Shown here: positions 15,367 to 17,253 of the stretch, in pieces
How the letters are laid out: each line of letters starts with the position of its first letter
Numbering within the stretch: position 1 is the first letter of the stretch
Source of the DNA: a virus
Taxonomy: Duplodnaviria; Heunggongvirae; Uroviricota; Caudoviricetes
DNA: 21,559 nucleotides
Reading direction: 5' to 3' (one strand)
IMG/VR virus record: IMGVR_UViG_2711768076_000009
Location: 1 to 21,559 of that record
Made by a program: the position numbers and the translations under genes
The notes under the pieces: model-generated
The model's database searches: none
Seen by the model: only the letters and a program-made list of their open reading frames with translations
Told to the model about the DNA's origin: nothing

Positions 15367-15762
15367 GTTTCGCCCTTATATAAATCAAAAGTGACCTGCA
15401 TTGAGTATCTCCATGAAATAGATTTGCCGCTGATATGAGCCAGATCAATAGACTTCATGAGCTAACGGGTGTAGATATTACTTTTTACTTCAGAGGGTTA
15501 ACTCATGGATATTAAGGATAAAATCAATACCATTTTGTTATGTGACATTGCCATCCACCTAGGTATCGAAACTGATATTGATCCACAGCTTGTAAAATAT
15601 GCTGTGTCATCTGGTAATGATTGGGTTATGAAGGCCGAATATTCACATTTGGATGTTGATGAACCAAGTAAAGAAGATCGTGATTTTGTTACTGCTGTCT
15701 TGAATATGTACCGCGGACTTTCCAATGCTTTCAGGAAACTTAGTGATGACGAGCAAAAAGAA

Positions 15763-15766
15763 TTAG
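15763..15766. repeat. IS5 target site duplication TTAG (left copy)
   Basis: TTAG immediately outside the left inverted repeat; fits the known IS5 target preference YTAR. Confidence 0.8.
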
Positions 15767-16962
15767 GGAAGGTGCGAATAAGCAGGTCATTTCTTCCCAA
15801 GCTGACTCGTTGATTAAAATTTCGCGGATCTGGGCCGATTTTTTTCCCGCAAACACATCGAATCAGCCTATTTAGGCTATTTTTTCCACCATTTCTGGCG
15901 TTATTTCCGGTTTTTACTGAGATCTCTCCCACTGACGTATCATTTGGTCCACCCGAAACAGGTTGGCCAGGGTGAATAACATCGCCAGTTGGTTATCGTT
16001 TTTCAGCAGCCCCTTGTATCTGGCTTTCACGAAGCCGAACTGCCGCTTGATGATGCGAAACGGGTGCTCCACCTTGGCACGGATGCTGGCTTTCATGTAT
16101 TCGATGTTGATGGCCGTTTTGTTCTTGCGCGGATGCTGCTTCAAGGTTTTTACCTTGCCGGGACGCTCGGCGATCAGCCAGTCCACATCCACCTCGGCCA
16201 GCTCCTCGCGCTGTGGCGCTCCTTGGTAGCCGGCATCGGCTGAGACAAATTGCTCCTCTCCATGAAGCAGATTACCCAGCTGATTGAGGTCATGCTCGTT
16301 GGCCGCGGTGGTGACTAGGCTGTGGGTCAGGCCACTCTTGGCATCGACACCAATGTGGGCCTTCATGCCAAAGTGCCACTGATTGCCTTTCTTGGTCTGA
16401 TGCATCTCCGGATCGCGTTGCTGCTCTTTGTTCTTGGTAGAGCTGGGTGCCTCAATGATGGTGGCATCCACCAAAGTGCCTTGGGTCATCATGACGCCTG
16501 CTTCGGCCAGCCAGCGATTGATGGTCTTGAACAATTGACGGGCCAGTTGATGCTGCTCGAGCAGGTGGCGGAAATTCATGATGGTGGTGCGATCCGGCAG
16601 GGCGCTATCCAGAGATAATCGGGCAAACAGGCGCATGGAGGCGATTTCGTACAGGGCATCTTCCATGGCACCGTCGCTCAGGTTGTACCAATGCTGCATG
16701 CAGTGAATACGCAGCATGGTCTCCAGCGGATAGGGCCGTCGGCCATTGCCCGCCTTGGGATAAAACGGCTCGATGACAGCGGTCATATTCTGCCATGGCA
16801 GAATCTGCTCCATGCGGGAGAGGAAAATCTCTTTTCGGGTCTGACGGCGCTTAGTGCTGAATTCACTATCGGCGAAGGTGAGTTGATGGCTCATGATGTC
16901 CCTCTGGGATGCGCTTCGGATGAATATGATGATCTCATATCAGGAACTTGTTCGCACCTTCC
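15767..16962 (-). mobile_element. IS5 insertion sequence, complete
   Basis: Terminal inverted repeats GGAAGGTGCGAATAAG (15767-15782) and CTTGTTCGCACCTTCC (16947-16962); encloses the InsH transposase; flanked by TTAG direct repeats. Confidence 0.9.
15914..16894 (-). CDS. insH: IS5 transposase InsH
   Basis: 326-aa [40 protein letters not shown]... recognised as the IS5 transposase. Confidence 0.9.
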
Positions 16963-16966
16963 TTAG
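16963..16966. repeat. IS5 target site duplication TTAG (right copy)
   Basis: TTAG immediately outside the right inverted repeat. Confidence 0.8.
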
Positions 16967-17253
16967 TCCGTGACCATCATCTAAAAATACATGATGGGGA
17001 AATTCAGCTCCCAGGTTTCGACGGTCATAATGAATGCGATTACTTCAGTATCATTGAGGCATATCAGAAAATTGATCGCTTCCCCGAACAGAAACAGCCC
17101 ATTGCCAATACTCATTCACGTACAGAACATCTCTATAACGCAATGCTTGATGAGTTTAAGAAAATTGACGCTGTAAATCGAAGCTGGGATTTATCAAAGG
17201 AAGAACTGGCATCCATTCTTTCCACAGCTCCACGCAGTTTCTAAGTGCTTTAG

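Follow-up and report, generated by a model that had tools for sequence, protein, structure and literature searches.

The locus described here raises a plain question: what is the gene that lies, in two pieces and on the strand opposite to its neighbors, between the lysis and the packaging genes of a tailed phage, and what would its product have done before it was broken? The DNA in question, hereafter the window, is the entire 21,559-nucleotide stretch of IMG/VR virus record IMGVR_UViG_2711768076_000009, which is the whole of contig CYGU01000039.1 (assembly GCA_001286685.1), and the gene is a split open reading frame (ORF) on its plus strand, running from an ATG at 15505 to a TAA stop at 17242-17244, that we refer to as the yfbU-like gene. 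A first-pass annotation, made from the letters of the window, had proposed that this ORF is a YfbU-family 'moron' at the position used by bor in lambda and that it was inactivated by IS5. Our best explanation is that an HK97-type lambdoid E. coli prophage carries it as an optional gene, or 'moron', situated at the swap site between the lysis genes and the HNH-cos-terminase genes. That the gene was split after codon 87 by an IS5-group element, and thereby inactivated, we regard as practically certain.

Restoration of the split gene

When the 1196-bp insertion sequence (IS) and one copy of TTAG were deleted in silico, the two halves joined into a 540-nt in-frame ORF (15505-15766 plus 16967-17244) encoding 179 residues. 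This restored ORF did not differ at any of its 540 nt from the intact gene in the prophage of E. coli STN0717-20 (L002), and a single synonymous difference set it apart from the copy in a second prophage (L001). In the STN0717-20 prophage, which is 99.1% identical to the window without the IS, both halves form a single unbroken gene, which bears the annotation 'YfbU family protein' WP_001532432.1. Because none of the 540 nt differed from an annotated intact gene, a chance reading frame is ruled out. Since the flanks of the IS are base-for-base identical to the intact allele, the insertion is recent, with no later decay. The first-pass coordinates for the gene, the IS, the TTAG copies and the restored frame were all exact, and the protein of about 179 residues expected upon rejoining across one TTAG proved identical to WP_001532432.1; intact alleles in related genomes, and co-linearity of the two halves in them, had been proposed as checks, and both were found.

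As it stands in the window, the 5' fragment runs in frame into the IS and meets a stop at 15813, giving a 102-residue truncated product. In the source strain, the most that would be made is an 87-residue N-terminal stub followed by 15 IS-encoded residues, and function would be lost. The 3' fragment harbors the best-conserved motifs of the family, PGFDG(N/H)NE and NTH, and gave a weak PF03887 match in the assembly's own gene calls. As a separate observation, a 98-residue frame (16948-17244, plus strand) starts at a TTG that lies in the final 15 nt of the IS and is preceded, 2 nt away, by AGGA; the frame spans the whole C-terminal half including the GFDG(N/H)NE and NTH motifs; a truncated C-terminal product may be made from these IS-borne signals, a notion that nothing supports.

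The IS displayed the hallmarks of the IS5 group, namely a length of ~1195 bp, 16-bp inverted repeats (IRs), one DDE transposase of ~326 residues and a 4-bp YTAR duplication. Its terminal IRs, GGAAGGTGCGAATAAG and GGAAGGTGCGAACAAG, are 16 bp long and identical at 15 of 16 positions, while the transposase matched NCBIfam transpos_IS5_4 (E 7e-110) as well as Pfam DDE_Tnp_1 (E 4.5e-35) and DUF772 (E 3e-21). YTAR is the target preference of IS5, which TTAG fits. The element is 99.9% identical to many plasmid and chromosome copies labelled by RefSeq 'IS5-like element ISKpn26 family transposase', 99.2-99.5% identical to 12-13 copies in K-12 strains (one of them inside the Rac lom-like gene), which we take to be the classical IS5/insH, and only ~91% identical to copies labelled 'IS5-like element IS5 family'. 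We considered whether the element had been misnamed, being ISKpn26 and not IS5, and dropped this idea since the K-12 copies, at that level of identity, carry the same RefSeq label of ISKpn26 family; 'IS5' is a fair name for the same reason, and the first-pass identification can be kept. The disruption resembles other gene inactivations by IS5/ISKpn26 (e.g. mgrB in Klebsiella) in the 1196-bp element, the 16-bp IRs, the 4-bp YTAR duplication and the breaking of a small ORF. The IS junction of the window occurred in none of 5426 complete E. coli genomes and was found only in contig CYGU01000039.1. The disruption itself is routine, with nothing unusual about it, and this copy is an ordinary pseudogene.

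Among the signals around the gene, the promoter is the weak one. A Shine-Dalgarno sequence (AGAGGG, 15492-15497) lies 7 nt ahead of the ATG. The hairpin downstream (17252-17272) has a 9-bp GC-rich stem, a UCC loop and a folding energy of -13.5 kcal/mol (z -2.42), and is followed by UAUUAU; it was not listed by a simple consensus scanner, and the minus strand has no U-tract there. The first-pass claim of an own Shine-Dalgarno sequence and an own terminator, both on the plus strand, is upheld to this extent, with the terminator resting on the fold and not on the consensus scan. Because the gene is opposite in strand to its neighbors, a promoter of its own is necessary, though orientation does not locate it; the best sigma-70-like candidate in a custom hexamer scan (TAGACT at 15449-15454, a 19-nt spacer and GATATT at 15474-15479) matched at 8 of 12 positions. 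The gene is also AT-rich and placed on the strand opposite to the late operon, as had been pointed out in the first pass: G+C content is 39.1% vs. 51.1% for the window, with a local trough of 37-41%, and the neighbors are all on the minus strand.

A distant relative of chromosomal YfbU

The restored protein matched the Pfam family PF03887 (YfbU) over residues 47-172 at 44.1 bits (E 3e-11), well above the gathering score of 25, which is the outcome that the family assignment of the first-pass annotation called for, and nearly all full-length homologues carry a precomputed match to the same family. The NCBIfam equivalog for chromosomal YfbU (NF003936 / PRK05445) gave 33.8 bits, under its cut-off of 90, and a single-sequence phmmer search of the PDB did not find 1WPB, the structure of E. 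coli YfbU; on account of these two results we do not consider the protein an orthologue of YfbU. In PDB searches with profiles, one built from 29 close homologues reached 1WPB/4LR3 at E 4e-4 and another built from 122 family representatives reached them at E 1e-16, with only YfbU matched. A PDB match to 4f61_I, a designed stathmin-like repeat protein, came from the single-sequence search and persisted with the narrow 29-homologue profile; the broad profile loses it, and we rejected it as a low-complexity helical artefact. These searches place the protein firmly within the YfbU superfamily but far from chromosomal YfbU, of which it is a distant paralogue.

Structure prediction was run on P0001, a 98% identical stand-in for the restored protein. 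The AlphaFold model (pLDDT 88.6, pTM 0.80) is all-helical and globular, and displays the two-domain all-helical architecture of the YfbU fold. With a calculated pI of 4.95, the product is best explained as a 179-residue, acidic, all-helical protein that is predicted to be cytoplasmic and to adopt the YfbU fold. It shares this fold with chromosomal E. coli YfbU (UPF0304; PDB 1WPB, 4LR3), and its C-terminal domain is homologous to that of YfbU, with a GFD motif and a Y-x-RML helix in common. In contrast, identity in the structural alignment is 15-18%, the protein has 179 residues vs. 164 in YfbU, and its N-terminal domain has no detectable sequence similarity to E. coli YfbU; moreover, E. coli YfbU is encoded by a core chromosomal gene whereas the yfbU-like gene is present or absent on prophages. 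In proteins of the mobile clade, G104 never varies and L12, W40, F102, F105, D106, N108 and H137 are nearly invariant, while E. coli YfbU has Ala and Gln in place of N108 and H137.

A sub-group of the family has a different architecture. About 20 of the top 150 family representatives, of 225-240 residues (e.g. P0050, P0053, P0098, P0173), have an N-terminal ribbon-helix-helix (RHH)-like segment of ~55 residues ahead of the YfbU domain, an arrangement reminiscent of antitoxins or autoregulators; their RHH_1 scores of 18.7-20.4 bits are at or below the Pfam cut-off of 20.5.

An optional gene in the slot of bor

The minus strand of the window reads, in order, Q antiterminator, a DUF5677-like gene, two holins, GH19 endolysin, spanins, then the interval with the plus-strand yfbU-like gene, followed by HNH, TerS, TerL, portal, protease and capsid. 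In phages more than 96% identical to each other in packaging and structural DNA, the gap between HNH and the spanins holds bor, nothing, or the yfbU-like gene. Phage vB_EcoS-640R1 (L003), which is 97.6% identical to the window up to 15366, encodes Bor (Pfam Lambda_Bor, E 4e-30) in plus-strand orientation, flanked by the same HNH and Rz; PhiR49_2 (L004) has just ~42 bp from the HNH-homologous segment to Rz; and the yfbU-like gene is also in vB_EcoS-689R5 and vB_EcoS-611R1. Compared with the phages that have bor or nothing, the left breakpoint of the cassette is exactly 15366/15367, and compared with a prophage with a different lysis cassette (L001), its right boundary is ~17583. The 'bor-equivalent locus' of the first-pass annotation turned out to be literal, given the Bor of vB_EcoS-640R1 on the same strand in the same gap. 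The word 'moron' was likewise apt as regards presence or absence, base composition and a terminator; as an autonomous unit, the gene has the terminator hairpin and only the weak promoter match described above.

The yfbU-like gene is akin to bor of lambda and to other morons between lysis genes and cos in its slot, antisense orientation, own terminator, atypical composition and presence or absence in near-identical phages. The products are of different kinds: Bor is a secreted outer-membrane lipoprotein that gives serum resistance, whereas the yfbU-like protein is acidic and modelled as all-helical and globular, and it has no Pfam similarity to Bor.

Distribution and maintenance of the intact gene

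The yfbU-like gene was found in 225 of the 5426 complete E. coli genomes (~4%), and 224 of these 225 copies were full length. The lone disrupted copy, in EC190329 (L018, NZ_CP142949.1, 2145-3909), was hit independently by ISSen4, of the IS3 family, near nt 131. Frameshifted alleles in the databases (P0022, P0027, P0029, P0032; 143-156 residues) switch frame around codons 96-103, at or near short runs of G and C, and could be either real pseudogenes or short-read assembly errors.

Orthologues with 50-82% identity reside in the same slot, on the opposite strand, beside several types of terminase and head module, comprising Terminase_4/TerL_ATPase with and without HNH, Terminase_2/Terminase_6, and lambda-like DUF1441/GpA; one orthologue is on a conjugative plasmid. 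A scan of IMG/VR yielded 174 viral contigs with relatives, 78 of which are covered by the locus counts. At 57 of the 78 loci, including those of relatives with 28-39% identity, the gene stood between terminase or HNH and lysis genes, both encoded on the opposite strand, and lysis genes were downstream in 72 of 78. As a rule the gene stands by itself, the median gaps to the flanking genes at these loci being 139 and 434 bp, and no conserved neighbor or partner gene was found beside the prophage-clade members examined. Family members also occur on plasmids and chromosomes. Among these, relatives reside on small mobilisable plasmids of 5-10 kb; on Acinetobacter lwoffii pAL_065-6 (L014, 593-2620) the neighbors of a relative are an 'Abi family protein' and, upstream, a small ORF; and on a Raoultella IncFII plasmid a copy begins 2 bp after a 170-residue ORF, near RelA/SpoT-domain and HNH genes.

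Where measurable, the ratio of nonsynonymous to synonymous substitution rates (dN/dS) was 0.07-0.13, with synonymous sites near saturation, which together indicate that the intact gene is maintained by purifying selection. In addition, 24 columns were invariant across 29 sequences, whose identity to the restored protein is 50-98%.

What the intact protein may do

YfbU/UPF0304 has had a crystal structure since 2004, with no biochemical function assigned, and a function has been demonstrated for just one YfbU-domain protein, Kamadhenu (pUCCL624_130), of the Lactococcus plasmid pUCCL624 (Grafakou et al. 2024). Kamadhenu is a 180-residue, single-gene PF03887 protein that confers resistance of the abortive-infection type to skunaviruses and ceduoviruses (PMC11381338). 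Phage DNA replication, transcription and translation are unaffected by it (PMC13064643), and an escape mutation maps to G22 of the phage Sak-like single-strand annealing protein (SSAP) (PMC12184496). The yfbU-like protein resembles Kamadhenu in being the product of a single gene, in length (179 vs. 180 residues), in its PF03887 / IPR005587 domain, in being carried on a mobile element and in having no obligatory partner. By analogy, the most likely reading is that the intact gene serves as a single-gene anti-phage system, of the abortive-infection or superinfection-exclusion type, that is expressed in the lysogen and possibly triggered via phage recombination functions. The gene would be expressed in the lysogen, to go by its orientation, Shine-Dalgarno sequence and terminator, with late transcription running antisense to it; the intact protein would exclude phage as Kamadhenu does, and this function would have been lost here through the IS. 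An exclusion role had already been suggested by the first-pass annotation; we still infer it, on better ground than before because Kamadhenu, a YfbU-domain protein, is an experimentally shown anti-phage system. We hold the anti-phage role itself tentatively, at somewhat short of an even chance, and the whole best explanation, with anatomy and defence function combined, at about an even one.

Several points weigh against the anti-phage role. The likeness to Kamadhenu was assessed from shared Pfam domain, size and single-gene layout; Kamadhenu is from a Gram-positive host and a plasmid, unlike the yfbU-like gene on an enterobacterial prophage, and both the anti-phage phenotype and the SSAP escape mutants have been shown for Kamadhenu only. 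That phenotype was itself obtained from a high-copy vector in the Gram-positive host. There is no direct functional evidence for any enterobacterial member, PHROG 6084, the group of this protein, is listed as 'unknown function', and PADLOC, in a 2023 library that predates Kamadhenu, recognised neither the protein nor the two distant relatives that were also run. Upstream of the gene there is no convincing sigma-70 promoter, and a stricter scanner listed no plus-strand promoter there. Finally, Bor, a TET-associated glycosyltransferase, a ParB/methyltransferase-like protein and DUF6236 have been found at this junction too, and because non-defence genes occupy it, location alone does not imply defence. 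As for a bridge to Lactococcus, no Lactococcus match emerged from 72,556 plasmids when the restored protein and a family consensus served as tblastn queries; the clusters of ten AT-rich family representatives held no Lactococcus, Pectinatus being the only named source; and a further homology search listed none of lactococcal origin among the best 120 matches.

Some defence-like genes have been seen at the junction too. In one orthologous prophage it harbors a TIR protein (L022, 1397-2275) that matches PADLOC PDC-S66 at E 1e-113 and is ThsB-like, and in another a Ser/Thr kinase of the PD-T4-6/Stk2-like type with a PP2C phosphatase (L006, 5990-7488). Moreover, a P2-like Yersinia phage has a relative directly behind its tail-fibre genes. 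These defence-like neighbors, together with the Abi-adjacent relative in Acinetobacter and the P2-like one, lend mild support to a defence role. A conserved polar cluster of D106, N108, E110 and H137, which falls in the GFDGNNE and NSH motifs, is missing in part from chromosomal YfbU. One may go further and surmise that the YfbU-fold genes at the lysis-terminase junction of enterobacterial lambdoid prophages are a large unrecognised branch of the Kamadhenu type of single-gene defence, that this cluster serves as an effector or ligand site and is activated by phage recombination proteins, and that chromosomal yfbU, the orphan 'death protein', is a domesticated relative; taken jointly, these proposals are in our opinion unlikely to hold.

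The anti-phage role has to be weighed against other functions, of which that of a lysogenic-conversion factor is suggested by chromosomal YfbU itself: a yfbU deletion mutant survives DNA-damage-triggered mazEF death, and YfbU, named a 'death protein', is needed for mazEF-dependent death after DNA damage (PMC2646832). As a paralogue with the same fold, at a locus also used by the host-fitness gene bor and in an antisense orientation suggestive of expression in the lysogen, the yfbU-like protein could tune the host DNA-damage or stress response, survival or prophage induction. However, its identity to YfbU is low and its score far under the equivalog cut-off, and with N108 and H137 replaced in E. 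coli YfbU the two proteins need not share an activity; in addition, the one YfbU protein of a mobile element that has been tested showed an anti-phage phenotype. We consider this function a minor prospect. Even less probable is a role as sensor or neutraliser in a toxin-antitoxin-like or self-regulated module, of which the protein would be one half and which would chiefly stabilise its element by addiction rather than exclude phages. The antitoxin-like RHH sub-group, the relatives on mobilisable plasmids and the Raoultella copy close behind another ORF are in line with such a module, whereas the prophage clade has neither the RHH segment nor a conserved partner, stands apart from its flanking genes by the gaps given above and has a downstream ORF that is not conserved, and the RHH_1 matches themselves do not exceed the cut-off. 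That the IS disruption is tolerated, both here and in EC190329, also argues against an antitoxin whose loss would be lethal.

A function in lytic growth of the phage, such as counter-defence or host takeover, would agree with a small, acidic, helical protein and with the modification genes protecting phage DNA (the TET-associated glycosyltransferase and the ParB/methyltransferase-like protein) that the junction sometimes harbors. We find it improbable to a similar degree as an addiction module, given that the gene is opposite in strand to the terminase and lysis genes at most IMG/VR loci, so that antiterminated late transcription would collide with it, that the family is also found on plasmids and chromosomes, and that the tested homologue, Kamadhenu, protects the cell and not the phage. 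Lastly, the gene might be a hitch-hiking passenger with no selected function, its disruption being neutral decay, as the two independent inactivations by IS5 and ISSen4, the frameshifted alleles in public assemblies and the near-identical phages lacking the gene could suggest. This is largely refuted by the selection signal, with its low dN/dS at near-saturated synonymous sites and its invariant residues; the single disruption among the complete-genome copies and a position kept across very different phages also speak against it, and we give it scarcely any credence.

Other features of the locus

The coordinates of the features are compiled in Table 1.

Table 1. Features of the yfbU-like locus, in coordinates of the window.
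Feature	Coordinates	Strand	Evidence or remark
TerL	12629..14386	-	packaging side of locus
TerS	14386..14868	-	Pfam Terminase_4, E 2e-25
HNH endonuclease gene	15016..15366	-	Pfam HNH, E 2e-16; packaging-side boundary
Upstream intergenic region	15367..15504	+	divergent from HNH; Shine-Dalgarno and weak sigma-70-like candidate
5' part of yfbU-like ORF	15505..15766	+	codons 1-87 plus one base; 100% identical to intact alleles
TTAG target-site duplication, left copy	15763..15766	.	sequence
IS5-group insertion sequence (ISKpn26 isoform, RefSeq naming)	15767..16962	-	1196 bp, IR ends
IS transposase, 326 residues	15914..16894	-	NCBIfam and Pfam matches
TTAG target-site duplication, right copy	16963..16966	.	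sequence
3' part of yfbU-like ORF	16967..17244	+	codons 88-179 and stop
Small late-strand ORF (phrog_5415, 88 residues when intact)	17250..17514	-	internal stop and 3' frameshift here
Intrinsic-terminator-like hairpin and U-rich tail	17252..17279	+	RNA fold; 8 nt past stop codon
Overlapping spanin genes	17492..18086	-	PHROG Rz-like spanins, E 4.5e-31 and 2.5e-30; lysis-side boundary

The small phrog_5415 ORF is linked to the yfbU-like gene within the E. coli block from 15367 to ~17583 and is intact in L001 and in the EC190329 locus. In the STN0717-20 prophage the same pseudogene, annotated with an 'internal stop' (L002, 6164-6403), stands beside the intact yfbU-like gene; as this is the closest intact prophage, decay of the small ORF predates the IS insertion. 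We considered this ORF as a partner gene and rejected it, given the pseudogene beside an intact gene in STN0717-20 and its being absent or unrelated next to diverged orthologues.

The mosaic nature of the region is evident from a comparison with L001, where the yfbU-HNH-terminase block is ~98% identical to the window and the lysis cassettes are unrelated, with a joint at ~17583: two holins and a GH19 endolysin in the window (17932-19200) vs. a class II holin, YdfR and a lysozyme in L001 (7106-8737). In PhiR49_2, an insert of ~820 bp (21009-21829) with a 171-residue plus-strand ORF that has no Pfam match lies between TerS and the HNH-homologous segment, and forms a second accessory slot adjoining the presumed cos region. 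Within the window, the minus-strand gene at 19367-20263, encoding 298 residues, is flanked by the Q antiterminator and the holins, at the place where Stx phages carry their toxin genes. Its RefSeq homologue is a 'DUF5677 domain-containing protein', with a Pfam DUF5677 score of 24.4 bits vs. a cut-off of 27.1, and it gave no PADLOC match; it is a further accessory gene.

Implications

The gene itself is already known, being annotated in RefSeq (WP_001532432.1) and grouped as PHROG 6084; in the literature examined, we came across no account that describes the prophage clade of enterobacteria, notes its fixed site between lysis and terminase genes or relates it to Kamadhenu, its probable kin. For the window alone the consequence is small, in that one prophage accessory gene is dead, and the dead copy is of modest interest. 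The family as a whole is a reasonable target for a defence screen. If the yfbU-like gene is indeed an anti-phage gene, an annotated defence gene would be added to ~4% of the complete E. coli genomes, the Kamadhenu type would be extended from dairy lactococci to enterobacterial prophages, and a tractable E. coli system, complete with natural knock-outs, would become available for studying the YfbU fold.

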